Origin: an uncultured Eubacteriales bacterium
GTDB taxonomy: Bacteria > Acidobacteriota > Aminicenantia > Aminicenantales > Aminicenantaceae
Length of the DNA: 64,000 nucleotides
Assembly: GCA_964633715.1 (NCBI GenBank)
Contig: CAZWHQ010000004.1
Location: forward strand, 5,354 to 69,353
Reading direction: 5' to 3'
The position numbers and the translations under genes were made by a program. Each line of letters starts with the position of its first letter. The stretch's first letter is position 1. This document shows positions 34,241 through 62,592 of this stretch, piece by piece. The notes under the pieces were generated by a model. It was not told the origin of the DNA and ran no database searches. It saw nothing but the letters and a program-made list of their open reading frames with translations.

Positions 34241-35701
34241 CTATTTTGGCAGGACATCCAGACCGTTATTACGGGCATCAGCCAGCATGATGTCGTGCAG
34301 CTCTTTCTGTAAGGCGTCATCCAGGGGAGATTCAGAGGGTTCATTCAGAAGTCTGTTGACTTCATCGGCAGCTCTTTCAGCCATGGATTTTCTCCCGAGG
34401 GAAGCCCAGGTATCATAGGTGTCTCGGTCAATCATAAGAGGATAGGTGTGTTCTTCTTTGTACCATTTTCTTGTATGTGGAGTGGACAGGAATTCTGTGT
34501 CTTTTGTGATATTTTCAAACATATGTGTGGCGACTGGATCCTCTCTCTGGGTTATCCCTTTGACCAGCCTGAGGGCCATTCCGGCTATTTCATTATCGAT
34601 CACTAATTTTTCCAGGCTCTGGCAGCTTTCAAAATCCATCATACCCGGACCTGAAATCACGTTGATCCCGGATAGAGCTGCAAGAACGGCGCCGATACCT
34701 GTTTCCAATCCGGCCTGGTTGTCATTGATCTTGGCGTCACTCAATCCCATATAGGCATGGGTTGGTAAGTTAAGGTGTTTGGCGATTTGGGTATATCCTG
34801 AATCGATCATCATCGTTTCGATAGCTCCCATGGGAGTTGTGCCTTTTCGCATGTCGAAGCTGGAGGGGGATCCGCCGAAAATGACTGGTGCGCCTTGTTT
34901 GGCCAACTGGCAGATCACGAGCCCCGTGAGGTTTTCTGCCACGTGCTGAACGAGTGTTCCTGTAATTGTAATCAGAGATGTGGCTCCTGTCATACCCATA
35001 GAGATCAACTCAGAAGGGATTCCAGCCCGAGCGCTGTCAATTAAAGATTGGGTTGTCAGATTGCTCCATTTAAGAGGAGGGGAGGGGCAGGCATCAAAAA
35101 TGGCCAGGGGTTTTTCTGCAAGCTTTTCTTTACTGCCTCTGACCGCCACCATCATGTCAAACATGGGTTTAAATCCTTCCACGCGGAAGGTCCCTGTCAC
35201 TATGGGTTTTGTCGAATGTTGTAGTCCGATATACATCCTATATGAATCACTGATGAATTCAGGGACATCCTGGCTGATGAGCCCGGTGCTCTGGAAGTCG
35301 ATGTTTTTCAATTTGTCCGTCAATTTAACAAAATTGACGACGTCCACTGTAGTCGCTTTTCTCTGGGCTTGGGTCTTATGGTCAAGGATCGTAACGGCCG
35401 CAGAACCCGGATCGAAATGGACATCATCTTCCCCAACGATAAATTCTTTTTCTCCTGATCTGTCATAGAGTTTGATCACGGCCGGAGTTGTAGCCAGGGA
35501 ATCGTGGACGAGTTGGGGGGTCAGATAAACTCTTTGTGTCGAGGTGTCGACCTTCATGCCTGCTGCCTGAAAGAGTTCTTGTGCTTCTTCATTCTCAACA
35601 AAAATACCCTCTCTTTCGAGCAAGATCAAAGCTTCTTGGATGATCTTTTCGATCAATGCTGCATTGAGCAATTCCATTTTGGGTCTTACGGTATGATTCA
35701 T
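34241..35701 (-). CDS. MttB-superfamily methyltransferase: trimethylamine/glycine-betaine-type substrate:corrinoid methyltransferase, non-pyrrolysine form.
   Basis: 486 aa, with the TIM-barrel MttB-family pattern throughout. No in-frame amber codon, so this resembles the MtgB-like quaternary-amine methyltransferases rather than Pyl-containing MttB. Confidence 0.75.
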   Translation of the reverse strand: MNHTVRPKMELLNAALIEKIIQEALILLEREGIFVENEEAQELFQAAGMKVDTSTQRVYLTPQLVHDSLATTPAVIKLYDRSGEKEFIVGEDDVHFDPGSAAVTILDHKTQAQRKATTVDVVNFVKLTDKLKNIDFQSTGLISQDVPEFISDSYRMYIGLQHSTKPIVTGTFRVEGFKPMFDMMVAVRGSKEKLAEKPLAIFDACPSPPLKWSNLTTQSLIDSARAGIPSELISMGMTGATSLITITGTLVQHVAENLTGLVICQLAKQGAPVIFGGSPSSFDMRKGTTPMGAIETMMIDSGYTQIAKHLNLPTHAYMGLSDAKINDNQAGLETGIGAVLAALSGINVISGPGMMDFESCQSLEKLVIDNEIAGMALRLVKGITQREDPVATHMFENITKDTEFLSTPHTRKWYKEEHTYPLMIDRDTYDTWASLGRKSMAERAADEVNRLLNEPSESPLDDALQKELHDIMLADARNNGLDVLPK

Positions 35702-35726: not shown

Positions 35727-37622
35727 TTATTTTTGAGTTTTTACAGTTGGGAACAATTTGACTTCGGTGTGAGGAAGAAATAAAGCCCCCGTATATTCGT
35801 TCATGTAGCGAGGTTCTGTATTCAATTCTAAATATGTCATCTTGTCAACAAGTTTTTCGATTTTTTCCCGGTTTTTATCGGACAGCAACACAAGCAGGGC
35901 GCCCAATAGAGAACTGTTTCCGACATAGTGAAATTTGTTTCTATCGAGATCTGGGAGGAGGCCAATGCGGATGGCATTTTCGACATTGAGATGCCGCCCG
36001 AATCCCCCGGCAATATAGACGTCAGCGATGTTGTCGAAGTCTATGCCTATGTTTTTAACGAGCAGCCTGCAGGCAGAAAATAGGGCACCCTTTGTTCGAA
36101 TAAGAGAAAGGATATCGTTTTCAGTGATGACCAGATCATGTCCCCAGAACGTGTCCTTTCCATCTAAAATAAGGAAAGCCAGTCCTTGTTCCGTATCCTT
36201 CAAATGTCCTTTTGTATTATCTGAAATAAACTTGCCGCTGCGGTCTATGAATCCGTAAATATAAAGTTCGGACAGCAGATCCACCAAACCTGAACCACAT
36301 AGTCCTCGAGGCTTACTGTTGTTGATTGTGCGGAATTCCAATCCTTTATCTCTATTCAATTTGACAGATTCGATCGCTCCATCTGAAGCCGGCATGCCGC
36401 ACCGGATCCCGCTGCCCTCAAAGGCTGGGCCTGCCGAACAGGCACAGGTCATCATCCAATCCATGTTCCCGATGACAAGTTCTCCATTTGTACCGGCATC
36501 GATAAAAAGCGAGATATCTTTGGCGTTTTTAAGCATGGGGGTGCTTAAAATTCCCGCTGTGATATCCCCCCCAACATAACTTCCCACAGCAGGGGCACAA
36601 AATATCCGGGCTTCTCTGTTCAGATCCAGGCCTATCTTTTCAGCGAGAACAATGGGGGCACGGTTAAATGTGGGGACATAGGGATCTTCTCGAATGAAAC
36701 GGGGATCACAATCGAGAAAAAGGTGGATCATTGTCGTATTGCCTGAAAATGAGCCATAATATATGTCTGAACAAGACAAGTTTGAACTCTTTGTGGCTTT
36801 GTGAATAAGAAAATTGATGGTTTTTATAATGAGTGTGTGAAGTTCTTTTTGGCGTTCCGGTTTCCGGGCGTAGTTGATTCTGGAAATGATATCTTCGCCG
36901 CATTTTATCTGCTGATTGAAGCTGGATGCCGTGCTGCAGATTTTCCCGTTTGTGAGGTCAACCAGATGAAGCGCCACGGTCGAAGTTCCAATATCGCAGG
37001 CGATACCGAGAACTTTTTTTTTAAGAGATACGGGGATAACATCGATGATAGAGTTTTCCAATCCGGCCGAAAACAAAATACAATCGACCTTATCTGGATC
37101 TTGACGAACGTTTTGTGACAAATTTTGGAGAACGGAAAAGGTGCTATTCCATTCCATCGGCCCGAGCTTTTCATCAAGTTTTTTCTCCACTCTCTTGAGC
37201 TCGCTGTAATTATTTTCCAGCGATGGAGGATCGAGTTTGAGGGAGATCTTCCTCACAGCAGGATTGACTTCATAGACACCCGAAATGCGGTCCTTGTTCT
37301 TGTTGAAATAGTCTGACTCAATCACACTCTGGATGGCCCGTTCATCAAAATGAGGGAGCTGGACAGTTAGGTTATCCTCGATCTTGGTCAAACAGGCCAG
37401 CACAAAACCTTTTGATAGAATATCATTGGGGAGTCCTTTGACGGAATTTTTAGACACAACTCCCTTTAAAATTTTTACACTGCAGTCTCCACACGTTCCT
37501 TCTCCGCCACAGGACGTCTTCATGGGTAGGTTTGCCTGTCTTATGGTCTCGAGGAGACCTGCCCCTTTATTGACCTCAACCTCTATCTCAAATGGGAGAA
37601 AGCGCACAGTGTATTTGTTCAT
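35727..37622 (-). CDS. Reductive activator of corrinoid proteins (RACo/RamA-like): an N-terminal [2Fe-2S] ferredoxin plus an ASKHA ATPase (DUF4445).
   Basis: N-terminal plant-type ferredoxin Cys pattern (CGGEGTCGDCSVKI...C), then a sugar-kinase/Hsp70/actin-like ATPase body. 631 aa, directly downstream of acsC. Confidence 0.8.
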   Translation of the reverse strand: MNKYTVRFLPFEIEVEVNKGAGLLETIRQANLPMKTSCGGEGTCGDCSVKILKGVVSKNSVKGLPNDILSKGFVLACLTKIEDNLTVQLPHFDERAIQSVIESDYFNKNKDRISGVYEVNPAVRKISLKLDPPSLENNYSELKRVEKKLDEKLGPMEWNSTFSVLQNLSQNVRQDPDKVDCILFSAGLENSIIDVIPVSLKKKVLGIACDIGTSTVALHLVDLTNGKICSTASSFNQQIKCGEDIISRINYARKPERQKELHTLIIKTINFLIHKATKSSNLSCSDIYYGSFSGNTTMIHLFLDCDPRFIREDPYVPTFNRAPIVLAEKIGLDLNREARIFCAPAVGSYVGGDITAGILSTPMLKNAKDISLFIDAGTNGELVIGNMDWMMTCACSAGPAFEGSGIRCGMPASDGAIESVKLNRDKGLEFRTINNSKPRGLCGSGLVDLLSELYIYGFIDRSGKFISDNTKGHLKDTEQGLAFLILDGKDTFWGHDLVITENDILSLIRTKGALFSACRLLVKNIGIDFDNIADVYIAGGFGRHLNVENAIRIGLLPDLDRNKFHYVGNSSLLGALLVLLSDKNREKIEKLVDKMTYLELNTEPRYMNEYTGALFLPHTEVKLFPTVKTQK

Positions 37623-37624
37623 GT

Positions 37625-38962
37625 TTAGGTTAGTTGGACATTTTTAACAAAAGATGGAATGTCCGAGGCCTCCTGGGGTCCCACGATGACCTCCCACCCC
37701 GGCAGGCTTTCTTCAAGATCTCCACTGATCTGTGAGACAAATCCTGGTATGACGATTTTCCGAGTTTTGACTTGATCTTCCAGTCCGATGTCTTTGATAA
37801 ATTTGGCAATGGTTTCCCCTACGAATTTTCCTGCGGCCCAGGCTGTAAGCACAGATTGGCCTTCGACATCCGTGATGACAAGGTGGGCCGATATTCCTGA
37901 GTTTTCAATCTCTCCTGAAACCATAAAATATGTGAGAGAAAAATTAGTGGTCACAAAAACAGGAGAATCGGGAGTGGGATCTCCGATCGGATAGATTCTG
38001 GGATCAACCTGAATGGGTTTTTGTGGATCGGTGAAAATGTTCTGACGCAAAGTAAACAAGGCATAGAGAAGCGCCTTGTTGTATTCGGGCAGTACGATGA
38101 TGGAATCGTATTTACACAAAAGCACAGACGCTTCGGCCAAAACATCATAAACAGAAGCACTTTGAATGTAGGAAAACAAAGGATAGCCAAAAGGTTTATA
38201 GCTGTTCTTCAAGGCACTTCGTCTCACTATGGTGTTGTTTTGGAGCTGGCGGCCTAAATTTTTCGCGTCCACATTGAGAATGAGGTCAGAAACACCCGCA
38301 GTGCGGGCCTTTTCAGACTGAGTTTTGAGGGATTCCAGAGAATCTGCAAAAAGGATAAGACTGGCGTTAAATGTTTTAGCCAGCACAAAATCTTCATCTG
38401 AGGCCGCATCTCTTAAGTAGATTGCCGGCCGAACGTCCTTGCATTTCTCCAGCCCTTTTTTTAGAAGTGTTGTGTCCTGGCAGTCGAGAATAATGCCTTT
38501 GGAGGACATATTTTGCACAGCATGGATGGTCTTGAGAAAATTGTCTTCATTTTTTGTGTTGTGCCGAATAAAAAACAGATCAATAAAAAGTTCTTCTCCC
38601 ACTCTTTCCACACGATAGTCCTCGAGTTCTTCAATTTTTTTCTTAAGATCGCCGATATCTTCTGAGGTGAGAAGTTCAATGGCGATTCCAGTCTGGTGAA
38701 AGAACGTTTTGTCATGCCGGAACAATACTGTTTCATTTCCGATTTCCAGCGTTTTGGCCCCGCCGATTTTAACCAATTTGATGGGAGGTTCACTGGCCGC
38801 ACCAAGAGAATCCTTTGCCTCATCTGAGGCAAAAGGACATTCGCCCAGTTCTGCTTTTTTCTGGGCCAGTTTCATGGCAAAGGCCATGCAGGTGGGGACA
38901 CCGCAGTCTCCACAGTTGGTTTTTGGCAGCAGTTTGAAGATATCCAGTCCAGAGAATGCCAT
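37625..38962 (-). CDS. acsC: Corrinoid iron-sulfur protein large subunit (AcsC/CdhE).
   Basis: N-terminal [4Fe-4S] motif CGDCGVPTCMAFAMKLA...C followed by a TIM-barrel corrinoid-binding body. 445 aa. Confidence 0.85.
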   Translation of the reverse strand: MAFSGLDIFKLLPKTNCGDCGVPTCMAFAMKLAQKKAELGECPFASDEAKDSLGAASEPPIKLVKIGGAKTLEIGNETVLFRHDKTFFHQTGIAIELLTSEDIGDLKKKIEELEDYRVERVGEELFIDLFFIRHNTKNEDNFLKTIHAVQNMSSKGIILDCQDTTLLKKGLEKCKDVRPAIYLRDAASDEDFVLAKTFNASLILFADSLESLKTQSEKARTAGVSDLILNVDAKNLGRQLQNNTIVRRSALKNSYKPFGYPLFSYIQSASVYDVLAEASVLLCKYDSIIVLPEYNKALLYALFTLRQNIFTDPQKPIQVDPRIYPIGDPTPDSPVFVTTNFSLTYFMVSGEIENSGISAHLVITDVEGQSVLTAWAAGKFVGETIAKFIKDIGLEDQVKTRKIVIPGFVSQISGDLEESLPGWEVIVGPQEASDIPSFVKNVQLT

Positions 38963-38963
38963 T

Positions 38964-39956
38964 TTAATTGTCCTTTTGAGTCAAAAACATGTCCTTAATT
39001 TTCCCTTTTACAGCCTTTACGGCTTCGGGGTGATACAGAATCAGGATGTCTGCTCCTGCAACCAGAAGGCTTATGGCGGTGGCGATTTCCCAGTGGGCGA
39101 GCCGTTCGGGAAGCTCCCCCCAATCGGGATTGGCCTCCATGTCTGTTCGGGCTTCTTTGATCAGGGACGTTTCATATCCGGGATTGACAAGCATCGGAGA
39201 TGAGAGCATCTTATCGCCTGAAAGACCATCTATCCGGATCCGTTCCATGATGGAGTAGGTGTACTCAAGTCCGTATCCGAGAGTTCCGGTCAGAGGATCC
39301 ATCACAATTCTATCCAGCGGAAAATCCATGTCGGCCAACAAGATGTTTAGCTGTTTGGCCAAGTTGACATCGATAGGGGATTGGGCCACAAGGGTGTGAT
39401 TGTAAGCGATGCACGCGGCGGCGATGGTTTTGTAGTTGTCTGTTTCGACAAAATTGAAAAGGCAGTTTTCTCCGGCCGTTATCTCACTAATTTTTTTCAT
39501 CACATTGTTGTTTTTTTCGAAATGGCTGTGACCGGTAATGATAAGAGGGACACTCACGCTTTGTAAAACATCCTGGACGATTTCAACCGCTTCCTCGACA
39601 CTCAAGTTTCCTTTTTCCGGGTGAGTCCCTTCCAGTCGTATTGAAATGAGATCGGCCCCATATTCATCGACACATTTCTTTGCCATTTCTCCTGGTTTGT
39701 CCAAGACGTCTTTAAAATAATCCAGCAGAGGCCGAGGGAATTTAGGCGGAACTCTATCAAAAACTTCCATGGCTACTACTGGAGGATAGGGAAATTGACC
39801 TTCAAAGAAATGGAAGGGCAGGGCCGTACTTCCTCCGACCGTCAAGGTAAAAGACCTGGTCCCGCCTAAATCGGCTGTGGCTCCAAGGCGGACGGAAACA
39901 ACTTGTCCTATATTGTTCTCTTTTGGGATTTCAAATACCATGGGTGTTGTCCTCAA
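38964..39956 (-). CDS. acsD: Corrinoid iron-sulfur protein small subunit (AcsD/CdhD).
   Basis: 330 aa with a pterin-binding-like TIM-barrel pattern. Position between acsC and cooC/acsB. Confidence 0.8.
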   Translation of the reverse strand: MRTTPMVFEIPKENNIGQVVSVRLGATADLGGTRSFTLTVGGSTALPFHFFEGQFPYPPVVAMEVFDRVPPKFPRPLLDYFKDVLDKPGEMAKKCVDEYGADLISIRLEGTHPEKGNLSVEEAVEIVQDVLQSVSVPLIITGHSHFEKNNNVMKKISEITAGENCLFNFVETDNYKTIAAACIAYNHTLVAQSPIDVNLAKQLNILLADMDFPLDRIVMDPLTGTLGYGLEYTYSIMERIRIDGLSGDKMLSSPMLVNPGYETSLIKEARTDMEANPDWGELPERLAHWEIATAISLLVAGADILILYHPEAVKAVKGKIKDMFLTQKDN

Positions 39957-39957
39957 A

Positions 39958-40713
39958 TTAATAATTTATAAAATTTTTCATCCATTTGTCGACAGCAAGT
40001 AGTGCCGGAGAAAAATCGGACAGTGTCCAGACTGACTCTCCATTTTTTTCCATGTCTAAAAGGGTGTTGTCTTCTGGGAGTGTCAAGCCCAATTCGAGGC
40101 GTTCTTCCTCGAGAGTCTGAGTTAATAAAGGTGGAACCTCTCCTTGAAGACGGTTGATAAATACGTCCTTCTTTCCAACTCGTATGTCCAGTTCACTCAA
40201 AAGACGGCTGATGTTTGCAGCTGTACGGATTCCTCTGACCGAGGGATCAGAGACAATGAGCAGGCGATCTATATTTAGGGTTGTTCGGCGGCTGAGGTGC
40301 TCCATCCCGGCTTCATTGTCGATGATGACATATCGATATTGGGCACTCAATGTCTGGAGAATATCCCTGAGGAGATTGTTGGCATAGCAGTAACATCCTG
40401 GTCCTTCCGGACGGCCCATAGCGATAAGGTCATAATCTGGTGTTTCCACAAGACTGGTCTGAATTTTATATTCGAGAAACTGGGCCTTGCTCATTCCTCC
40501 CGGAAGATTCGTAGGGTTCTGTTTCATTTCTTCTCTTATTGCTCCCACAGTGTCCTCAATCTCGAGTCCCAAAAGGACATTGAGATTGACGTTGGAATCG
40601 GCGTCGACGGCTAGAACAGATCTGCTTTTGTGTTGGCTCAACCAGCGGACCATCAGAGCAGCAATGGTACTTTTTCCTGTTCCCCCTTTTCCTGAAATAC
40701 CTATTGTTTTCAT
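39958..40713 (-). CDS. cooC: CooC/AcsF-type P-loop ATPase (nickel-insertion accessory protein, MinD/ParA superfamily).
   Basis: Deviant Walker A GKGGTGKST, 251 aa, between acsB and acsD. Confidence 0.8.
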   Translation of the reverse strand: MKTIGISGKGGTGKSTIAALMVRWLSQHKSRSVLAVDADSNVNLNVLLGLEIEDTVGAIREEMKQNPTNLPGGMSKAQFLEYKIQTSLVETPDYDLIAMGRPEGPGCYCYANNLLRDILQTLSAQYRYVIIDNEAGMEHLSRRTTLNIDRLLIVSDPSVRGIRTAANISRLLSELDIRVGKKDVFINRLQGEVPPLLTQTLEEERLELGLTLPEDNTLLDMEKNGESVWTLSDFSPALLAVDKWMKNFINY

Positions 40714-40724
40714 TGTTTTAGAAA

Positions 40725-42929
40725 CTAGAACAGAGGGGGCATGGAGAGTGCATGATGGTTGTTCTGTGTGATGAACTCCAGAACCTCTTCTTCGGTTATT
40801 GCAACTGTTTCATCGGCGATCGATTCAAAATAATTATCTATGCCTTGAGCTTTTCCGATATCCCGGAGAATAGATTCCAACTCTTCTTTAAGGCCTCTAT
40901 CCATCCAAACGATCCTTGGAGCGCCTCCCTCTGCGCTGATGAATTTTTGACTTCCGATATACTGCTTGCTGTGCCCGATAAATCCGGGTGTCTGGACTCC
41001 GCCTCCCACAGTTCCTGCCAGGGTCGAAAACTTCATGCCTATAGGTGTCATACCCATATAATCTCGATAGACTGTCATGATTCCATTTGTCGAAGGCAGG
41101 ATGCATGAAATGCACTCAAAACATCCACACGATGTCATGGGGAATTCGATGATGCTGTAGGCATTAAATGTATCCAAGGTTTTATGAGAATTGTTGTACA
41201 CAAAAGTGTTTATGTCCTGCCACTGCCCTTTGATAGGATCAGTGACTTTTCCCTTTTTTACGGGTTGGTTAGGGCCGGCCGGGCTGATTTGATGGGCCGC
41301 TTTGCCGTCCAACCAGTTGTAAGCACCGCACAATCCCGATCGCTCGGGGGTGATGATACAGATGTGATTTGGCGCAAATGACTGGCACAGCGCACAGGAA
41401 TAAAATGTATCGACAGCCTCATCGGTCATATTGGCCAGGCGAGCATCCCGATGGAGATACACTTCGCGGGCCTTTCCGATAAGAGTTTTGACGTCTTTTT
41501 CCACCGTGTATATTCTGATCTGGACCTTGTCGAAGATTTTTCCGAATTCACCATGGAGTTTGGCATGGAGGATAGAACCGAAATGACGAAATTTAAATCC
41601 TTTATCCTTTGTATCCTTTCCGATCCGGATCCAGTTGATATCCCTTTGGCCCATATGAAACACGCCGTTGGCGGCATTGATAAAATCATGTATGTGGCGC
41701 TCGAGAATGGGTTCAAAATCTGTCTGCATTTCACGCCCTGCCACTTCGGCCCAGATTCCGATGGGGATTTTACTCCCTGAAGGGACCTCGTCGATTTCCG
41801 GACCAATCACCTCAATTCTTCCGTCTTCGACTTCATCGAGTTCCTTGGTGGTCAAATATTCAAATCCCAGTTGTTCCTGCCCGCCCAATTCCACATACAT
41901 ATCTTCTTTCCTGATCCTTTCCCCCTGGAAAGCGGGTCCATAGGGGACAGGAATGGGAACTTTGGTGATGTTGAGTTTGAGTCCTCTGACCTCGATCGCT
42001 TTGGCGACAATATTGTCCAATGGGACAGGAGAGACAACATGCTCATAGGTGCAGATGCCTGAAGGAAGAATTTGATCGATATCTGTCTCCGAAATTGTGG
42101 GAAACCCAAAATTGAGGGTGCCTGCTGCCTGGGCGTGTTTTTCTTCGTCAACTGGTCCCAGTGCCAGCACAAAAGCGAACACGCGGTTTTTATTGTAGCG
42201 GAGAACTCTCTGGAAATCTCCTGGTTGTGCCCCTCCAAAGGAGAGGGCAACCCGCGTGGCAAAACCCAGAGAATGAACGGTGGCAGCCACATCATCACCA
42301 AAAGGAACGAGGCGTGTGTCCCAGCCCAACTGAATGCCTTCTTCGTGGAGCTGAGTGGCCATGGATTTTCCGTTTATCCCTGCTGACATAAACACATACA
42401 AGTTTTTTTCTTGAAGTTCGCGCGCAATTTTAACCGCCAGTTCATTAGTGGAACAGCAGCCAACACAGGCGGCAAATCCCGGAGCCGTCCCATCCACAAA
42501 CTCGATGCCTCGCTCGCGCATGATGACATCATTGGCTGCGCCCAGCCAGAGTTGGCTGGCGTCGGGGGTTGTTGTTGTAAGATAGGGAAGAGGAGTCTGT
42601 ATGTACTTGATGGCCTCGATGATTTCATCGGCAAACAATGTGGCCATTCCTGCATCCAGTGTGTGTCCGAGAAAAGGGAGCCATTTTTCCTTTTCCGGGA
42701 TTGGAGGAAGAAGATTCTGGGCTTCCTGGAGCAGCTCTTGAAGACCTGCTAAAGTTTCGATTTTCAGGCCAAGTATCCCGTGTGAGATGGGTAAAAAGTA
42801 GCCTGTATTGGGGAACTCGACTTTGGTCTCAGGGCTGTTGTTGACGATCGCTAATTTGAGTTCTTTTTCTGCACGGGAGACCAGGTTATGAGCACCTTGG
42901 ATGGCTTTTGTTGCGATGATTCTTGACAT
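40725..42929 (-). CDS. acsB: Acetyl-CoA synthase, bacterial-type (AcsB/CdhC; A-cluster subunit).
   Basis: 734 aa. Cys-Gly-Cys A-cluster bridging motif (SCGCFEC) plus the upstream Cys ligands. Bacterial length class. Confidence 0.9.
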   Translation of the reverse strand: MSRIIATKAIQGAHNLVSRAEKELKLAIVNNSPETKVEFPNTGYFLPISHGILGLKIETLAGLQELLQEAQNLLPPIPEKEKWLPFLGHTLDAGMATLFADEIIEAIKYIQTPLPYLTTTTPDASQLWLGAANDVIMRERGIEFVDGTAPGFAACVGCCSTNELAVKIARELQEKNLYVFMSAGINGKSMATQLHEEGIQLGWDTRLVPFGDDVAATVHSLGFATRVALSFGGAQPGDFQRVLRYNKNRVFAFVLALGPVDEEKHAQAAGTLNFGFPTISETDIDQILPSGICTYEHVVSPVPLDNIVAKAIEVRGLKLNITKVPIPVPYGPAFQGERIRKEDMYVELGGQEQLGFEYLTTKELDEVEDGRIEVIGPEIDEVPSGSKIPIGIWAEVAGREMQTDFEPILERHIHDFINAANGVFHMGQRDINWIRIGKDTKDKGFKFRHFGSILHAKLHGEFGKIFDKVQIRIYTVEKDVKTLIGKAREVYLHRDARLANMTDEAVDTFYSCALCQSFAPNHICIITPERSGLCGAYNWLDGKAAHQISPAGPNQPVKKGKVTDPIKGQWQDINTFVYNNSHKTLDTFNAYSIIEFPMTSCGCFECISCILPSTNGIMTVYRDYMGMTPIGMKFSTLAGTVGGGVQTPGFIGHSKQYIGSQKFISAEGGAPRIVWMDRGLKEELESILRDIGKAQGIDNYFESIADETVAITEEEVLEFITQNNHHALSMPPLF

Positions 42930-42931
42930 CC

Positions 42932-44866
42932 TTAAATCTCCAGGTCTCTTCTCATCTCCATATCATAGAGCACCCGTTCTTTCCCTTTACTGATACCTAG
43001 GGCCTCTCTTTTTTTGTCTATGTGGTCGATCATCAGTTCGGCCATTTTTTTAGGATCGGGTTCGACCGCCCATTTTCCTCCAAATAGGCTTTCAAAATCA
43101 CCAAAGATAAGACGGCAAAATTTATCGCTCCCTGTGACAGGGAGGCCTACGCCAAAAACAGTAAAAACTCCGGAAGCGACAAAATACTGGCCGATAGAGA
43201 TGGCTTTTTCGCTCATCCATTCGGGAGCGGCGCCGGCCACGGGCAGGTCTGAAATGTCTTCTCCCAATCCTCCTATTTTGACCATTTCGGACAAAGCCAT
43301 AAGGATACGGCTGTTGTCCACACAGGAACCGGAATGGAGTACGGGCGGCATGCCCACAGCTTTGCAGACTTCAGCCAGCCCCCTTCCAGCATATTTTTCA
43401 GCCGATTCGGGAATAAGATAGCCGGCTTTAGCGCAAGCAATAGCGGAACAGCCTGTCTGGACAACAAGGATATCATTGGCGATGAGCTCCCGGACTAAAT
43501 CCACATGAGCCTTATCGTGAGTGACCTTGGGATTACAGCAGCCGACAACTCCGGCCACACCCTTGATCCGGCCGTTGATGATGTTGTCATTAAGAGGAGT
43601 ATAGGAACCACGAAACTTGCCTCCCAACATATAGATGATTGCCTCGTGGCTGAATCCTGCGATCAGATCCATCTTTTCTTTGGGGATTTCCACCTGTTCC
43701 CTGTTGGGAAAATTGAGAATGGCGGTTTTGACGATTTTCTTAGCGGTTTCGTACGCGTTTTTGTCACCTAATTCATAGTATTCGGCGCCGGGGATCTGAC
43801 CTTTGCTCGATGTCGTGATGATCTGAGTGTGGAAACATTTACACAATTCCGGGAGTGCGGGCATGATGCACTGCACATCGACAATCATAGCATCTACGGC
43901 TCCTGTGCTGACTGCCAATTCCTGTTGGAGCACATTTCCTGCTACAGGGAGGCCGTGGCGGAGGAGAATCTCGTTGGCTGTGCAGCAGATTCCGGCAAGG
44001 TTAATGCCTGAGGCCCCGTTTTCTTTAGCCAGGTTTATAAGTGTCTTATCCTGAGCAGCCAGCACGAGCATCTCTGAGAGTACAGGTTCATGTCCGTGTA
44101 CGACAATATTCACCTCTGTTTCAGAAAGAACGCCCAGATTGACTTCTCCCCGGAGAGGGGAGGGTGTTCCAAAAAGGATATCCTGAAGTTCGGTGGCCAC
44201 CATGGAACCTCCCCAACCGTCGGCAAGGGCCGTTCGTGCCCCCTGGAGCATGATGTTTTTTGGATCGTGGTCCACTCCCATGGTTGTCCGGTGCATCATC
44301 TCGACGACTTCACGGTCAATCCCTCTGGGAGACACACCCAACTTATGCCATAAAGCCTGGCGGTTATCGGGAGCCATTTTGAGGAAATCCAACTCTCCTT
44401 CCTGCCTTCCGAAATTTTCGAGAGTTTCTTCCGCCACATCACGTGCGATATCTTCAGTCCTTCTGTCCTTTATATTGATTCCCAGTGTCTGCGCGATTGT
44501 ATTGAGCTTAACCTTGTCTTTTATTGAATAGGGAGATTCGGGATTGGTGGCTGCCTCGAGCAGTGTTTGAGCGACATCTCTGCCGTGGTCGGAATGCGCC
44601 GCCGCTCCTCCTGCGATTTTGCGTGCAAAATTGCGGGCTATGATCACCTCGGCGGTGGCCCCGCAAACTCCCTGTTGAGGGCTTTTGCCTTTTGGGTGGA
44701 TACGGCAGGGGCCCATGTAGCAGTTATTGCAGCAAAGCCCTTGTTCACCAAAACCGCAGTGTGGAGACTGTTTTTCAGCCCGGTCCCAGATTGTTTCGAT
44801 CCCTTTTTCGGCCGCTCTTTCTAGGGTTTGCTGAACTGTTTTATCGATACTTTTTTTCTCAGACAT
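42932..44866 (-). CDS. acsA: Ni-dependent anaerobic carbon monoxide dehydrogenase catalytic subunit (CooS/AcsA).
   Basis: N-terminal B- and D-cluster Cys motif (HCGFGEQGLCCNNCYMGPCR); 644 aa; hybrid-cluster/CODH family pattern. Confidence 0.9.
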   Translation of the reverse strand: MSEKKSIDKTVQQTLERAAEKGIETIWDRAEKQSPHCGFGEQGLCCNNCYMGPCRIHPKGKSPQQGVCGATAEVIIARNFARKIAGGAAAHSDHGRDVAQTLLEAATNPESPYSIKDKVKLNTIAQTLGINIKDRRTEDIARDVAEETLENFGRQEGELDFLKMAPDNRQALWHKLGVSPRGIDREVVEMMHRTTMGVDHDPKNIMLQGARTALADGWGGSMVATELQDILFGTPSPLRGEVNLGVLSETEVNIVVHGHEPVLSEMLVLAAQDKTLINLAKENGASGINLAGICCTANEILLRHGLPVAGNVLQQELAVSTGAVDAMIVDVQCIMPALPELCKCFHTQIITTSSKGQIPGAEYYELGDKNAYETAKKIVKTAILNFPNREQVEIPKEKMDLIAGFSHEAIIYMLGGKFRGSYTPLNDNIINGRIKGVAGVVGCCNPKVTHDKAHVDLVRELIANDILVVQTGCSAIACAKAGYLIPESAEKYAGRGLAEVCKAVGMPPVLHSGSCVDNSRILMALSEMVKIGGLGEDISDLPVAGAAPEWMSEKAISIGQYFVASGVFTVFGVGLPVTGSDKFCRLIFGDFESLFGGKWAVEPDPKKMAELMIDHIDKKREALGISKGKERVLYDMEMRRDLEI

Positions 44867-44966
44867 GAAGATTTTCCATCCGGATCGGTATTTTTAAAAG
44901 AGGTCAATTATAGCCTATTTTTTAAAGGTTGCCCAATGATTTTTAGAAAAGAGGTGTAGGATGTCT

Positions 44967-46019
44967 CTAAAAACGGAGCTGCTGGCTGAGGCGGGATAAT
45001 TCCTGGAAAATTTTATTCGATAATTCCACAGAGAGTGAGCCGGTTCCGCAGCTGGGTGTGAGGAGACATTGATCCCATATCAGATCCTTATCTATCCCTT
45101 TCTCTGCCAGATTGTCGATTCGCTCTTCCAGTTTTTTGTGCAATGAGCCGGTTGTCTCGACTTTAATTTTTTCAGATGTCGGGACGATTCCCCAAGCGAT
45201 AACACCCCTCTTTTCCAGAAAACCTTTGACCTGTTCGGGATAATAACCGATTGTGTCGCCGAATTCATAGGCGTCAAAACTGATGATGTCCACACCGGCA
45301 TCGATCAGTATAGGCCATTCTGTGTTCCCACAGCAGTGGGTGCCGACAAGAGCTCCTTCCTGATGAATAGCTTCGACCACTTCATTTAAATATTCGACCA
45401 CGTCTGCTTTCTGGAGACTGACATAGGTCGAAGAGCCAAAGGCCGACAGAATGGGTTCATCGACAAAACAGATTTGTTTAAATCCGAAGTTTTTGAATCT
45501 GTTCAGAAGCCAGCGGGCCTTCATTATGATCCCTTTGACCACCGTGTCCCTGAAGACGTCATTGTAATAGATGGCGCGTTTATTCTCATCAACGGTGGCC
45601 AGTCCAAAAGTGATAGGTCCTGTGACCTGGTGTTTGAAGAAGAGCAGGGAAGGGGGAAGCGCTGCTTTTAATTTTTCTTCCATGGCATAGAGCCCGCGGC
45701 TGAATTCGGGTGAAATACGGAAATAGTCGAGATTTTCCATTACGAAGTTTTCATAAAATTTTTCCAATTCACTTGTGGGATCCCCACTTGTGTCAATGAT
45801 CATCTTACTTTTGGCTTCATCAAGCACTACACATGGAAGACCTTCACTGTACTGGATTTCCATCTGCTCGCGAAAATTTGCATTAGACAACTGCGGCCAG
45901 ACTGGGATTTCGGGAATTGTCTCGAGGATCAGGTCACAAACCTTTCCGGCATCCAGATCAGGAAAACTCCCAATGCCGGTTGCCAGGCACTTTGGAAAAA
46001 ATGTCATTCTCTTCTCCAT
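44967..46019 (-). CDS. URO-D/CIMS-like zinc methyltransferase (core-MetE/MtaA-like; methylcorrinoid-dependent methyltransferase candidate).
   Basis: 350 aa. Zinc-site-like H-C-C (GTHCCGN) and CG (TPSCGTG) motifs resemble the C-terminal domain of cobalamin-independent methionine synthase and MtaA-type methyltransferases. Confidence 0.55.
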   Translation of the reverse strand: MEKRMTFFPKCLATGIGSFPDLDAGKVCDLILETIPEIPVWPQLSNANFREQMEIQYSEGLPCVVLDEAKSKMIIDTSGDPTSELEKFYENFVMENLDYFRISPEFSRGLYAMEEKLKAALPPSLLFFKHQVTGPITFGLATVDENKRAIYYNDVFRDTVVKGIIMKARWLLNRFKNFGFKQICFVDEPILSAFGSSTYVSLQKADVVEYLNEVVEAIHQEGALVGTHCCGNTEWPILIDAGVDIISFDAYEFGDTIGYYPEQVKGFLEKRGVIAWGIVPTSEKIKVETTGSLHKKLEERIDNLAEKGIDKDLIWDQCLLTPSCGTGSLSVELSNKIFQELSRLSQQLRF

Positions 46020-46798
46020 TTATTGGAATTATCCCCAATGAGAGAGTAGATGGTTTGAAATTCTTTTTTCAACAGAGAGTCCAGGTTGTCGTAGAGAGGC
46101 AAGCTGTCCCTATCAGAATGGCTGATGATCTGGCTGAAGGAGATTCTACCAAGGTACAAGTTCTCTGAAAATTGTTTCTGTATCCATAAAGCTTGATCTT
46201 TGTCCTGAATTTTATTTCCAATGACATTGAATTTTTCTATGCCGATTTCTTTGCCAAGTTTAATGATGGTTTTGGCCGTCTGGATGCTTCGCAGCCCGGG
46301 TTCTACGACGATAACCATGGAGTCTATAGACTGAGCGGTCGCTCTTCCCAGGTGCTCGATACCGGCTTCCATATCCACGATGATAATTTCATTTCTATTG
46401 AGCAAAATATCGGACAGGAGACTGCGGAGAAGGACATTTTCAGGGCAGGCACATCCATCCCCACCTTTTATTATGCCTCCCATTACTAAAACCTTGATCC
46501 CATGTACAGAAATACAGAAATTTTCGGGGATGTCACTGACAGTAGGATTAAGTTTAAATAGCTGCCCAAACTGCCGTGGCCTGGCTCCTGTGCGCTCCTG
46601 GATCAGCTTTCGCTGAGCAGAAATAGGGGAAACTGAAGCCAATAGTTCTTGAGATGCCCCTATGGCTTCTGCGAGGTTAGCATCGGGATCGGCATCTACG
46701 GCCAGTACCTCAAATCCGCTTTTTTTAAAAAAATGAGAAAGGACAGCAGCAATGGTTGTTTTTCCAGTCCCGCCCTTTCCCGTAATGGCTATCTTCAT
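46004..46798 (-). CDS. Second CooC/AcsF-type P-loop ATPase (Ni-insertion accessory).
   Basis: GKGGTGKTT Walker A; 264 aa; paralog of the 39958-40713 gene. Confidence 0.8.
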   Translation of the reverse strand: MKIAITGKGGTGKTTIAAVLSHFFKKSGFEVLAVDADPDANLAEAIGASQELLASVSPISAQRKLIQERTGARPRQFGQLFKLNPTVSDIPENFCISVHGIKVLVMGGIIKGGDGCACPENVLLRSLLSDILLNRNEIIIVDMEAGIEHLGRATAQSIDSMVIVVEPGLRSIQTAKTIIKLGKEIGIEKFNVIGNKIQDKDQALWIQKQFSENLYLGRISFSQIISHSDRDSLPLYDNLDSLLKKEFQTIYSLIGDNSNKWRRE

Positions 46799-46916
46799 CC
46801 AGTTATTCTAGAGAAATAAGTATATTTTATCAAATTTAGTAATCCTTCTTTACATTAAAATTGGGATATGGTAGATGAAGGGGGAAGAATAAAAAATTAT
46901 ATGTGAGGAGGAGCAA

Positions 46917-47552
46917 TTGGCAATATTAGAAGATTTGGCAGCAGAAGTTGTAAAAGGAGATGCAGATGCGGCAAAAAACCTTACAGAAGAAGCCTTAAAC
47001 CAGAATACATCGGCGGGAGATATTCTGAATTTGGGTTTGGTTGCGGGTATGAATGTTATCAGTCAGCAGTTTAAGAATAATGAGATTTTTATTCCAGAGG
47101 TACTAGTGGCTGCAAGAGCTATGAAAGCAGGAATGCAAATAATCCGTCCTCTACTCGCAGAGGCCAAAGTGGAATCCTTGGGGAAAATTATCATTGGCAC
47201 ATGCGGAGGAGATTTGCATGATATCGGAAAAAACATTGTCGCCATGCTGCTGGAAGGAGCAGGATATGAAGTCATAGATCTGGGTGCAGATGTTCCCAAG
47301 GAAAAATTTCTGGAGTATGCAGAAAAAGAAAATCCTGATGTTTTAGGAATGTCAGCTCTTCTTACAACAACGATGGTGTTTATGAAGGGGATGGTTGAGG
47401 CTCTTGAGGAATCCGGACTCAAGGAAAAAGTCAAAGTAATTATTGGCGGAGCACCCATCACACAATCCTATGCGGATGAAATCAGAGCGGATGGTTATGC
47501 ACCCGATGCCGCTTCAGCTGTGGATCTGGTTAAGGCCGTGATGGGAAGTTAG
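46917..47552 (+). CDS. Corrinoid (B12-binding) protein of methyltransferase systems (MtgC/MttC-like). Uses a TTG start.
   Basis: N-terminal helical cap and a Rossmann B12-binding domain with the DxHxxG motif (GDLHDIGKN). 211 aa. A GGAGGAG RBS precedes the TTG. Confidence 0.8.
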   Translation: MAILEDLAAEVVKGDADAAKNLTEEALNQNTSAGDILNLGLVAGMNVISQQFKNNEIFIPEVLVAARAMKAGMQIIRPLLAEAKVESLGKIIIGTCGGDLHDIGKNIVAMLLEGAGYEVIDLGADVPKEKFLEYAEKENPDVLGMSALLTTTMVFMKGMVEALEESGLKEKVKVIIGGAPITQSYADEIRADGYAPDAASAVDLVKAVMGS

Positions 47553-49315
47553 GATTGGGCAGGAAAGTCTAAAGAATCCACAAAATATTCCTGGAACTGG
47601 ACATCTGTCGCCAGGGAGAAAAACACAACTTTTTTTGAGAGAGCGACAACGTCTGCGCGAAGCGGGGCTGAAATCAGCAGGGCCTTTGCACCGGCTATCG
47701 AAGAATTTCCGACAAAATGGATTTTTTCTTCAGGAATCGGTGGCAAAAGACCGATTTGAATACTGTTGGAGATGTTCAAATAGTTCCCGAAGGCTCCTGC
47801 GATAAATATCCCATCAAGAAGATCGAGAGAGAGGCTTTTTTTCTCCATTATCATCCTGATTCCTGACCTGACAGCGGCCACGGCGAGCTGAAGTTCCCGA
47901 ATATCTTTTTGAGTAAGTGATAGATCTGGAGTCAACTCGATTTTGCCGGATTCATTCAAAATTTTTCCCTTTTGAGACAATAAGCCCAAATTAAGAGCAA
48001 CAGCCACGGCGTCGATCAAACCGGTCCCGCAGATGCCAAGGGCAGGTTGGCCCTGGACAGTCTCCATCTGAACAGGGTTGAGGTTTCTGACTTTGAAAAT
48101 TGCCCCCGGTAAAGCCAGCATACCGCAGCTGATATTCATCCCCTCAAAGGCCGGCCCGGCAGCCGTGGATGTGGCGACACTTTCTGTATCTGTTTTAAGA
48201 ACGATTTCTCCGTTTGTCCCAAGGTCGATAAATAGAAAATTTCCTTTTTTATTAAAAAGGTCAGACGCGATAAGACCTCCTGATATATCTCCACCAACAA
48301 AACTCTGGATATTCGGGACAATAAAGAGTTTGCCGCTGTGATGGATTTCAAAACCAATCGAGTTCGCCGGTAATTCAGGCAGAGATGAAAACAGGGCATT
48401 AAAAGGGGTTTGGGATAGGGTCTCAAGAGGAAGTCCAAGCAGTATATGGTTCATGGTTGTATTGCCGGAAAGAACGATCTCATAGACATAAAATGGGGGG
48501 ATATGGTGCTTGGAGAGGATTTGAGCGATTTTTTGATTGAGGTTTTCGAGGACTGTTTGTTTTAGTTCTTCCAGGTTGGATTTTCCGGAAATGGAAAAGC
48601 CTATTCTGGAGACGACATCGGCTCCGAATTGAGACTGGCTGTTTTCTGAGGCTATCTTGTCGATACTTTTCCCCGAATTGAGATCGATAAGTTCAACAAC
48701 AAGTGTTGTTGTGCCCAAATCGATTGCAATCCCATAACAGTGATTTGATGTATTGCCCTCTTCAATGGCGATAATTTCACTGTTTTTATGAATAACGGAT
48801 GTGATTTTGTATTGGTTTTTTTCGAGGATTGGATGCACTGTTTTAAGCAGTCTAAGAGGAACAGACAATTTTGTGTTCTTTAAGCTCTTTTGGAAAAGTT
48901 CAATGAATGACTGGGGTTCGGCAAGTGTGGGTTTTGGCAGTTGGATAAAAAACTTTTTTACTGAGGGATCCAAAGTCACAGGTGTTTTAACACCGGATTT
49001 CAAAATGTTCTGTTTTTGCAAAAGAGATTCTTCAGGAATATCAATTTTTAGATCGCTCTTGATATGAAAAAGACAGGCAAGTCGATATGTTTTTTCTAGA
49101 TTTTTCTCCATAAGAAAGGATTCTTCCTGTTCCCCTAGAGGGGCGAGGTGGCCATCGATAATATTTACCAGGCATTTTCCGCACACTCCAAGAAGGCCGC
49201 AGTCTGACCGTAGATTTATCCCTGCTTTTTGTAGGGCATCTGCAAGGAGAGTATCCTCTTCGACAGAAATTGTTTTGTTTAAGGGAAATATTTCGATGCT
49301 GAATTTCTGGCTCAT
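47549..49315 (-). CDS. Second RACo/RamA-like corrinoid reductive activase ([2Fe-2S] ferredoxin + ASKHA ATPase).
   Basis: N-terminal ferredoxin Cys pattern (CGLLGVCGKC...C), DUF4445-like body, 588 aa. Convergent with the corrinoid protein gene, overlapping it by 4 nt. Confidence 0.75.
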   Translation of the reverse strand: MSQKFSIEIFPLNKTISVEEDTLLADALQKAGINLRSDCGLLGVCGKCLVNIIDGHLAPLGEQEESFLMEKNLEKTYRLACLFHIKSDLKIDIPEESLLQKQNILKSGVKTPVTLDPSVKKFFIQLPKPTLAEPQSFIELFQKSLKNTKLSVPLRLLKTVHPILEKNQYKITSVIHKNSEIIAIEEGNTSNHCYGIAIDLGTTTLVVELIDLNSGKSIDKIASENSQSQFGADVVSRIGFSISGKSNLEELKQTVLENLNQKIAQILSKHHIPPFYVYEIVLSGNTTMNHILLGLPLETLSQTPFNALFSSLPELPANSIGFEIHHSGKLFIVPNIQSFVGGDISGGLIASDLFNKKGNFLFIDLGTNGEIVLKTDTESVATSTAAGPAFEGMNISCGMLALPGAIFKVRNLNPVQMETVQGQPALGICGTGLIDAVAVALNLGLLSQKGKILNESGKIELTPDLSLTQKDIRELQLAVAAVRSGIRMIMEKKSLSLDLLDGIFIAGAFGNYLNISNSIQIGLLPPIPEEKIHFVGNSSIAGAKALLISAPLRADVVALSKKVVFFSLATDVQFQEYFVDSLDFPAQS

Positions 49316-62195: not shown

Positions 62196-62237
62196 GATAA
62201 GGATTCAAGGGGTCAAGAATTCAGGGATTCAAGTGCT
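62196..62237. repeat. Left arm of an imperfect inverted repeat of about 40 bp, built from GGATTCAAGG-like sub-repeats, flanking the four-helix-bundle gene.
   Basis: gataaggattcaaggggtcaagaattcagggattcaagtgc is the near reverse-complement of the right arm at 62598-62637. Confidence 0.7.
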
Positions 62238-62592
62238 TTTTTTCTAACGATTTAATAAGTGCTTTGAGCATCCTTTCAACCTCTCCTATTCCCTCCTGTA
62301 GTATCTTTAATTTATCAGTCTCAATATAACCCATGTCCCCAGATAGTAATATTTGGGTTTCCAGCTCACAATTTGAACCATAAGCAATATATAAAAACCG
62401 AATATATTCCGGAGTTGTTTTTCGTCCATATCCTTCTGCTATATTACTTGGAACAGAGACTGCTGCTCTCCGTATTTGCGATGTCAGGATGTATCTTTCT
62501 TCATTAGGGAATCTTTTTGTTATTTTGTAAACCTCCAAACATAGCTGATAGGCTCTTTGCCAAACTTTCAATTCTTTATAATTCCTAAGCAT
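62221..62592 (-). CDS. Four-helix-bundle protein of the family usually encoded in 23S rRNA intervening sequences.
   Basis: About 120 aa with the characteristic N-terminus (YKELKVWQRAYQLCLEVYKITKRFP...), the conserved AAVSVPSNIAEGYGR motif, and flanking inverted repeats. Confidence 0.8.
   Translation of the reverse strand: MLRNYKELKVWQRAYQLCLEVYKITKRFPNEERYILTSQIRRAAVSVPSNIAEGYGRKTTPEYIRFLYIAYGSNCELETQILLSGDMGYIETDKLKILQEGIGEVERMLKALIKSLEKKHLNP

Follow-up and report, generated by a model that had tools for sequence, protein, structure and literature searches.

We analysed a 64,000-nucleotide stretch of DNA from an uncultured Eubacteriales bacterium (GenBank assembly GCA_964633715.1, contig CAZWHQ010000004.1, positions 5,354 to 69,353 of the forward strand; hereafter, the window), concentrating on mesB, a minus-strand gene located between cooC and acsA in a gene cluster for carbon monoxide dehydrogenase (CODH), acetyl-CoA synthase and the corrinoid Fe-S protein (CFeSP, AcsCD). 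Its product is a new, uncharacterised member of the MesB (core-MetE) family, an assignment that rests on the sequence tests made here. The best explanation overall, to which we give a probability of about 65%, is that the protein is a MesB methionine synthase with AcsCD as its methyl donor. The protein very probably acts as a methyl-corrinoid:homocysteine methyltransferase that makes methionine, as its characterised homologue does. Homocysteine as the substrate is suggested both by conserved residues and by that homologue. The chances that CFeSP is the donor, as synteny and a published hypothesis suggest, are a little better than even. Underlying this explanation are family membership, catalytic residues, fold and synteny, each established in the present analysis.

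In the proposed mechanism, a lone barrel of the kind seen in the catalytic domain of MetE, carrying zinc, would bind homocysteine and activate its thiol on a His/Cys/Asp/Cys zinc site. The methyl group would be taken from a methyl-Co(III) corrinoid, not from methyl-folate, yielding methionine and Co(I). We expect mesB to be co-transcribed, and probably translationally coupled, with the genes of the order cooC-acsA-acsB-cooC-acsD-acsC-RACo. Methionine would then be a direct branch off the methyl pool of acetyl-CoA synthase, with no folate intermediate.

The mesB gene and its family

A preliminary description of the window had reported a 350-residue protein with H-C-C and S-C-G motifs. The corresponding open reading frame (ORF; 44967..46019, minus strand) is present as described, and its translation contains both motifs, as T-H-C-C-G-N (HCC codons 45338..45330) and P-S-C-G-T (S-C-G codons 45053..45045). 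To judge from the sequence, the true start is most likely Met5 (ATG at 46007..46005), which places mesB at 44967..46007 and gives a product of 346 residues. This start is favoured because a length of 346 residues is also found in the identical database protein and in almost every relative. Just 5' of the Met5 ATG there is a GGAGA, and the ATG itself overlaps the stop codon of the upstream cooC as ATGA. The ORF is a real gene, conserved far beyond chance. More than 7,400 proteins (90%-identity clusters) match it at E≤1e-3, the top match being 100% identical over 346 residues (E 1.5e-233) and carried by a JGI metagenome contig. A library of 50%-identity representatives contributed 1,924 matches at E≤1e-3, 421 of them at E≤1e-30. 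The best-matching named sequences come from metagenome-assembled genomes (MAGs) of Aminicenantes and Acidobacteriota.

Short folate-independent core methionine synthases form four families, one of which is MesB (Price et al. 2021, PMC7857596). The founding member of MesB is Dehalococcoides mccartyi CBDB1 cbdbA481, a protein of 343 residues with the ligands His215/Cys217/Asp236/Cys312 (Deobald et al. 2020, PMC7005905). The enzyme is active with methylcob(III)alamin and inactive with 5-methyl-tetrahydrofolate (methyl-THF) (PMC7005905). The published MesB criterion is a phmmer score of at least 173 bits to DET0516, with a relaxed cutoff of 130 bits (PMC7857596). To recover a reference core-MetE gene, we searched metagenomes with the 20 gene-specific nucleotides of A481_fw, a published cloning primer, and obtained two contigs. 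The reference gene, on contig L002, encodes 343 residues, starts with MTKTDFY and ends with KHGTV, as the reverse primer predicts. It has His215, Cys217, Asp236 and Cys312 at exactly the published positions. Next to it are genes for methylthioadenosine phosphorylase, methylthioribose-1-phosphate isomerase and S-adenosylhomocysteine hydrolase, a setting that agrees with how the locus has been described (PMC7005905). Against this reference, which has the CBDB1 residue numbers and primer ends and is not literally DET0516 (reported to be 99% identical to the CBDB1 enzyme), the target shows 37% identity over 326 residues in BLASTP (221 bits, E 2e-74) and scores 222.9 bits in phmmer (E 3.5e-70), exceeding both the 173- and the 130-bit cutoff.

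Profile searches gave much weaker signals. The sole Pfam match is Meth_synt_2 (PF01717) at residues 132-325, with E 9e-4 and 19 bits versus a gathering score of 21. The characterised Dehalococcoides enzyme likewise has no Pfam match at E≤1e-3; therefore, a weak Pfam score goes with the family and does not count against membership. In NCBIfam, the best match is the archaeal core methionine synthase model (MesA-type, NF002119; E 5.5e-5, 22.5 bits versus a cutoff of 258). Meth_synt_1, the N-terminal folate-binding domain of MetE, has no Pfam match in the target. A canonical MetE has two domains, about 750 residues, and both PF08267 and PF01717 above the gathering score, whereas the target is 346 residues long. 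What is found is the single-barrel MesB architecture with no folate domain: 346 residues, Meth_synt_2 as the only Pfam match and a structural model resembling the C-terminal barrels of MetE. As expected for a MesB-encoding organism, genes for AcsC and AcsD are also present, both in the mesB operon.

Predicted zinc site and fold

Residues are numbered here according to the 346-residue form. The HCC motif corresponds to His224-Cys225-Cys226 (codons 45330..45338, minus strand), of which His224 and Cys226 are the predicted first zinc ligands (HxC) and align to Dehalococcoides His215 and Cys217. Asp245 (45273..45275, minus strand), the predicted third ligand, aligns to Asp236, and Cys320 of the S-C-G motif (45048..45050, minus strand), the predicted fourth, to Cys312. 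The spacing of the predicted ligands is +2, +21 and +96. Asp245 stands where MetE has Glu, which is the MesB state. In addition, Ser14 (IGS motif) and Asp183 (FVDEP motif) align to the homocysteine-binding residues of the Dehalococcoides enzyme, the equivalents of Ser433 and Asp599 in MetE. We examined these positions in an alignment of 144 sequences, comprising the target, the Dehalococcoides enzyme and 142 diverse representatives of at least 300 residues from the 50%-identity library. The zinc-ligand positions are nearly invariant (His in 143 of the 144 sequences, the HxC Cys in 140, Asp in 143 and the S-C-G Cys in 142). The homocysteine-binding positions are conserved in 134/144 (Ser) and 136/144 (Asp) sequences.

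An AlphaFold2 model based on 63 family sequences has a mean predicted local distance difference test score (pLDDT) of 76.7 and a predicted template modelling score of 0.80. The regions of the predicted zinc ligands are modelled with 10-residue block mean pLDDT values of 88-95. When the model was compared with the PDB using Foldseek, ranks 1-15 were taken by MetE structures of T. maritima, C. albicans and N. crassa (best E 5e-8), and rank 16 by the MesD structure 3rpd. The structural prediction that the preliminary description had proposed as a check thus points to MetE catalytic barrels, with predicted zinc ligands that align with those of MesB. Its main proposal, a short core-MetE zinc methyltransferase, stands: the score lies above the published MesB cutoff and MetE barrels are the closest folds.

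The same description had noted a resemblance to MtaA and CmuA, and had named a best match to HemE as the outcome that would overturn its proposal. To an identity as a methylcobamide:thiol methyltransferase of the MtaA/MtbA/CmuA type, with the uroporphyrinogen decarboxylase (URO-D) fold, or as HemE, we give almost no credence. A 45-residue match around HCC to the MtbA model (E 0.01) speaks for it, but its 15 bits compare with a cutoff of 600. The URO-D profile PF01208 gives no match at E≤10, and no uroporphyrinogen decarboxylase or MtaA structure occurs within the top 50 Foldseek matches in the PDB. Sequence and fold together refute this identity. Of the two profiles that had been suggested for comparison, PF01717 is thus the only one to match, although below its gathering score.

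The acs operon and the methyl donor

To find out how regularly mesB occurs with acs genes, we scanned one genome per GTDB species and obtained 51 loci with mesB relatives of 54-89% identity. Synteny is counted here over the loci with enough flank. The conserved gene order is cooC-mesB-acsA-acsB-cooC-acsD-acsC-RACo. Within 2.5 kb downstream of mesB, acsA is present in 32/33 loci; the gene immediately upstream of mesB is cooC in 31 of 39, and acsC or acsD follows mesB in 23 of 27. The MAGs are labelled as Aminicenantes, Acidobacteriota, Latescibacterota, KSB1, Eisenbacteria, Thermodesulfobacteriota, Gemmatimonadota and Fibrobacteres, some of these automatic labels looking unreliable. Only in three loci (L033, L041 and L045) does mesB have no acs neighbours, and wherever the clade's mesB does have them, AcsCD is found as well. 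Given the shared operon, the methylated corrinoid Fe-S protein AcsCD is the most likely, being the most economical, physiological donor.

These results bear on several functional proposals of the preliminary description. A methyl-corrinoid rather than methyl-THF as the donor agrees with the MesB-level score against an enzyme that uses methylcob(III)alamin. From the position of the gene in the cluster, the description had deduced an exchange of methyl groups with CFeSP in either direction. The tight linkage to acsABCD makes CFeSP a plausible donor; the other half of the idea, an AcsE-like loading of CFeSP, was not supported. Methionine synthesis from methyl groups of acetyl-CoA synthase is supported by homology and by the place in the operon, and the idea has already been published. 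CFeSP was proposed as the methyl donor of MesB by both Deobald et al. 2020 (PMC7005905) and Price et al. 2021 (PMC7857596), the latter also noting mesB-acsCD operons in some methanogens.

In the window, the operon lies on the minus strand, and the gene lies between cooC and acsA, as had been described. The operon starts with a gene for a cooC-type Ni-insertion P-loop ATPase (46004..46798; Pfam CbiA/AAA_31/ParA), whose stop codon is the one that overlaps the mesB start. Downstream of mesB are acsA, the CODH catalytic subunit (42932..44866; Pfam Prismane E 2.7e-171, TIGR01702 660.7 bits versus a cutoff of 478), acsB, acetyl-CoA synthase (40725..42929; Pfam CdhC/ACS_CODH_B_C, NF040764 1015 bits versus 800), and a second cooC/acsF-type ATPase gene (39958..40713; Pfam CbiA/AAA_31). 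The small subunit of CFeSP, acsD (38964..39956; Pfam CdhD, NF003376 385 bits versus 280), is followed by the large subunit, acsC (37625..38962; Pfam FeS and CdhD, NF003195 512 bits versus 306), which would be part of the methyl donor. Next comes a reductive corrinoid-protein activator of the RACo/AcsV type (35727..37622; Pfam Fer2 and RACo linker/middle/C-terminal domains, AcsV 648 bits, below the cutoff of 800). The last gene of the operon codes for an MttB-superfamily methyltransferase lacking pyrrolysine (34241..35701; Pfam MTTB E 1e-87, TIGR02369 397 bits versus a cutoff of 525). In a JGI assembly of the same locus (L005, contig KVRMV2_100031634), what look like frameshifts, in comparison with the window, split or shorten acsA, acsD and RACo; they are probably assembly or sequencing errors in the JGI version.

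Upstream of cooC there are two sigma-70-like matches (46805..46923, minus strand), TTGCCA-16-TATAAT (11/12) and TTGATA-17-TAGAAT (10/12), which by their agreement with the consensus are candidates for the operon promoter. The 100-nucleotide gap between mesB and acsA (44867..44966, minus strand) is AT-rich and contains a sigma-70-like TGGGCA-17-TATAAT, with no terminator-like hairpin on that strand; acsA might have an additional promoter of its own. A search of Rfam over 33-51 kb revealed no S-adenosylmethionine (SAM), cobalamin or THF riboswitch. The sole match above the gathering score in this region is PYLIS_3 (34645..34744, minus strand; 44.2 versus 38 bits), inside the mttB-like ORF. PYLIS_3 is the pyrrolysine insertion element of mttB. 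Opposite its UAG, the ORF has an in-frame UUG (Leu at codon 320) and continues without a break. By its sequence, then, 34241..35701 encodes a non-pyrrolysine MttB homologue whose codon differs from amber by a single nucleotide and whose score is below the cutoff of the trimethylamine-methyltransferase equivalog.

On the other side of the operon, and divergent from it, lies a gene for a small corrinoid protein of the MtgC/MetH type (46917..47552, plus strand; Pfam B12-binding_2 and B12-binding, MtgC 236 bits, below the cutoff), followed by a second RACo-type corrinoid activase (47549..49315, minus strand; Pfam Fer2 and RACo domains). Therein lies a different candidate for the donor. Homocysteine would be methylated by the same chemistry, with the small corrinoid protein in place of CFeSP; the MttB-family enzyme, which might be another source of methyl-corrinoid, would methylate this protein, and the second RACo would keep it active. 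In this way, methyl groups of a methylated amine or a similar substrate would reach methionine by a corrinoid-dependent route. The genes of all three components lie no farther than 13 kb from mesB, 8/29 loci again have the corrinoid protein upstream of the operon, and certain MesB paralogues have been suggested by Price et al. to depend on corrinoid proteins different from CFeSP (PMC7857596). Nevertheless, in the other 21 of these 29 loci mesB stays beside acsABCD with no small corrinoid protein within 5-10 kb. Among the loci compared, only the window and L007, its closest relative, have the MttB-family gene. Moreover, in relatives the small corrinoid protein pairs more plausibly with a stand-alone homocysteine domain of the MetH type. 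Overall, we consider this donor unlikely.

Such stand-alone proteins of the homocysteine S-methyltransferase family (PF02574; about 300 residues, E ~1e-70) are encoded in eight related loci. In six of them, the gene comes directly after RACo in the same operon (L012:15736-16424, L015:20261-21035, L018:16086-16604, L022:20483-21029, L024:17858-18760 and L051:20530-21035), a slot that in the window is held by the non-pyrrolysine MttB homologue. In the remaining two it is upstream (L023:1324-2229 and L028:8244-9167). Together with the small corrinoid protein and the second RACo, both of which are often upstream, the PF02574 protein looks like a split MetH without the pterin module. One operon can thus hold two genes of the homocysteine-methyltransferase type.

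A number of observations weigh against a MesB methionine synthase supplied by CFeSP. Because of the PF02574 genes, and of a Fibrobacteres locus in which a full-length MetH adjoins cooC-mesB (L049:140-3586), MesB is not obviously the sole methionine synthase in these relatives. Price et al. themselves warn of a possible different role for MesB-like proteins in genomes of this kind (PMC7857596). The small corrinoid protein, which comes with its own activase and adjoins the operon, could be the real partner. The similarity to MetE proper is marginal, with PF01717 below the gathering score. Sequence searches of the PDB gave no match with either the target protein or the family profile as a query; therefore, fold comparison alone ties the family to MetE at the structure level. 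The model is poor (pLDDT <50) at residues ~49-96 and 131-147, and these parts include the MesB-variable region that would hold the third homocysteine contact. Finally, the target protein and its clade are biochemically uncharacterised.

Bacterial acs clusters normally include acsE (PMC12827605). In the 64-kb window, we found no acsE or other gene for a pterin-binding protein when Pfam was run over all ORFs of at least 120 residues that are not nested in a longer ORF. Similarly, no pterin-binding homologue was detected within 10 kb of mesB in the 51 loci by phmmer with a single MetH pterin domain, a query of limited sensitivity for AcsE. In these genomes, acsE may lie elsewhere. Two further interpretations of mesB draw on this absence. 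According to the first, put forward in the preliminary description, MesB replaces AcsE and moves methyl groups between methyl-THF and CFeSP. The missing acsE is all that speaks for it. The target has neither a pterin-binding domain nor the N-terminal folate-binding domain of MetE, it retains both the zinc site that would activate a thiol and the residues for binding homocysteine, and the homologue from Dehalococcoides shows no activity with methyl-THF and fails to complement E. coli metE (PMC7005905). Replacement of AcsE is thus extremely improbable. An AcsE-like function was also rejected on the profile level, PF00809 having no Pfam match in the target.

The second interpretation reverses the reaction. 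Methionine or another methyl-thioether would be demethylated onto Co(I)-CFeSP, feeding acetyl-CoA synthesis, and in an operon without acsE MesB would be the methyl-loading enzyme of the complex. The lack of acsE speaks for this, and a purely biosynthetic role would seem redundant given the second gene of the homocysteine methyltransferase type that many relatives have. Methylthiol:coenzyme M systems (MtsA/MtsB) show that methyl transfer from a thioether to Co(I) is chemically possible. On the other hand, the favourable direction is from methyl-cobalamin to thiolate, the conserved amino-acid-binding Ser and Asp point to homocysteine, acsE may simply be encoded outside the operon, and the characterised homologue is a methionine synthase with a kcat of ~60 per second (PMC7005905). 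We therefore regard the reverse direction as very unlikely.

A broader possibility, which we consider distinctly unlikely, is that the whole acs operon is a folate-independent module exchanging the methyl group of CFeSP with the homocysteine/methionine pool. In the acs operon devoid of acsE, MesB is the only methyltransferase that always accompanies CFeSP. In one version, acetyl-CoA cleavage could mainly supply methyl groups for methionine, as proposed for Dehalococcoides, here with a full CODH. In a bolder version, MesB or the MetH-like domain could charge CFeSP with methyl groups taken from methionine or other thioethers, for use in acetyl-CoA synthesis. Folate-independent exchange and reverse operation alike receive a small probability from us; we found no positive support for them.

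Several further features of the loci are worth recording. In eight loci (L027, L030, L031, L032, L038, L043, L044 and L046; for example, L030:11108-12897), genes for a CooF-like 4Fe-4S ferredoxin (~161 residues) and a Pyr_redox_2/Rubredoxin_C flavin adenine dinucleotide-dependent oxidoreductase (~430 residues) are inserted between mesB and acsA. Another eight-locus feature, which includes L012:536-1828 and L024:5609-6868, is a divergent gene for a regulator with a PocR sensor, of the AraC type, upstream of the block of corrinoid protein, RACo and cooC-mesB-acs. This protein is a candidate regulator of the operon; it was not seen in the window. The genome behind locus L024, Aminicenantes E29_bin47, has been described as a putative acetogenic heterotroph (PMC6472368). 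Elsewhere in the window (62221..62592, minus strand), a 123-residue protein matches 23S rRNA-intervening-sequence protein/bAvd-like families. Proteins resembling bAvd sometimes occur alongside diversity-generating retroelements.

Annotation and comparison with known systems

Both the MesB type and its link between CFeSP and methionine are already known, and the target is not a new kind of enzyme. Until now, the case for CFeSP as the donor has been built on phylogenetic co-occurrence, together with operons of a few methanogens. In our search for literature joining core-MetE/MesB with the Wood-Ljungdahl pathway and methionine synthase, we found nothing beyond Deobald et al. 2020 and Price et al. 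2021. Here, mesB lies between cooC and acsA, apparently coupled translationally to cooC, and about 30 genomes, with labels from several bacterial phyla, have this arrangement. Measured against the literature found, such conservation of the operon is stronger bacterial genomic support for the CFeSP donor than has been published.

The family is poorly served by current annotation. No Pfam or NCBIfam model captures MesB, and NCBI labels members of the clade 'hypothetical protein', while JGI labels some of them 'methionine synthase II'. A cluster look-up of distant family members returned these two names only. As a consequence, metabolic reconstructions for Aminicenantes MAGs and others like them will wrongly list methionine synthase as missing. 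The practical value of the present analysis is the repair of this annotation, together with flagging, at the genome scale, the acs operon without acsE and the second gene of the homocysteine-methyltransferase type.

Among known systems, MesB of Dehalococcoides (cbdbA481 in CBDB1, DET0516 in strain 195) is the one that shares most with the target. Both are single-domain proteins of about 345 residues with 37% identity (223 phmmer bits), the same His-x-Cys...Asp...Cys ligands at spacings of +2, +21 and +96/97, and the same IGS and FVDEP motifs; in both cases, the organism encodes AcsC and AcsD. The difference is in the genomic context. The Dehalococcoides gene sits with genes of methionine salvage and the SAM cycle, whereas the target gene sits in the acs operon between cooC and acsA. 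Canonical MetE, represented by the T. maritima structure 1xpg, is the top structural match (Foldseek E 5e-8, probability 1.00) and has zinc-thiolate chemistry in common with the target. However, the target is devoid of the folate-binding N-terminal domain, has Asp instead of Glu as the predicted third ligand and scores below the PF01717 gathering threshold. MetE uses methyl-folate, whereas the expected donor of the target is methyl-corrinoid.

The short MetE-like architecture and the zinc site are also shared with MesA, MesC and MesD, of which MesA and MesC are likewise predicted to use corrinoid proteins. The target falls outside MesA, as its NF002119 score is less than a tenth of the cutoff, and in fold it matches the MesD structure 3rpd less well than MetE; MesC is likened to the target by description only. 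In the methylcobamide:coenzyme M methyltransferases MtaA and MtbA, too, a zinc-activated thiol attacks a methyl-corrinoid protein, but these enzymes belong to another fold family (URO-D), to which the target has neither a PF01208 nor a structural match. AcsE, the methyl-THF:CFeSP methyltransferase (PF00809) usually encoded in bacterial acs clusters, would have the same partner as the target, the corrinoid Fe-S protein. It is, however, a pterin-binding barrel without a zinc-thiol site, and no homology between it and the target was detected.

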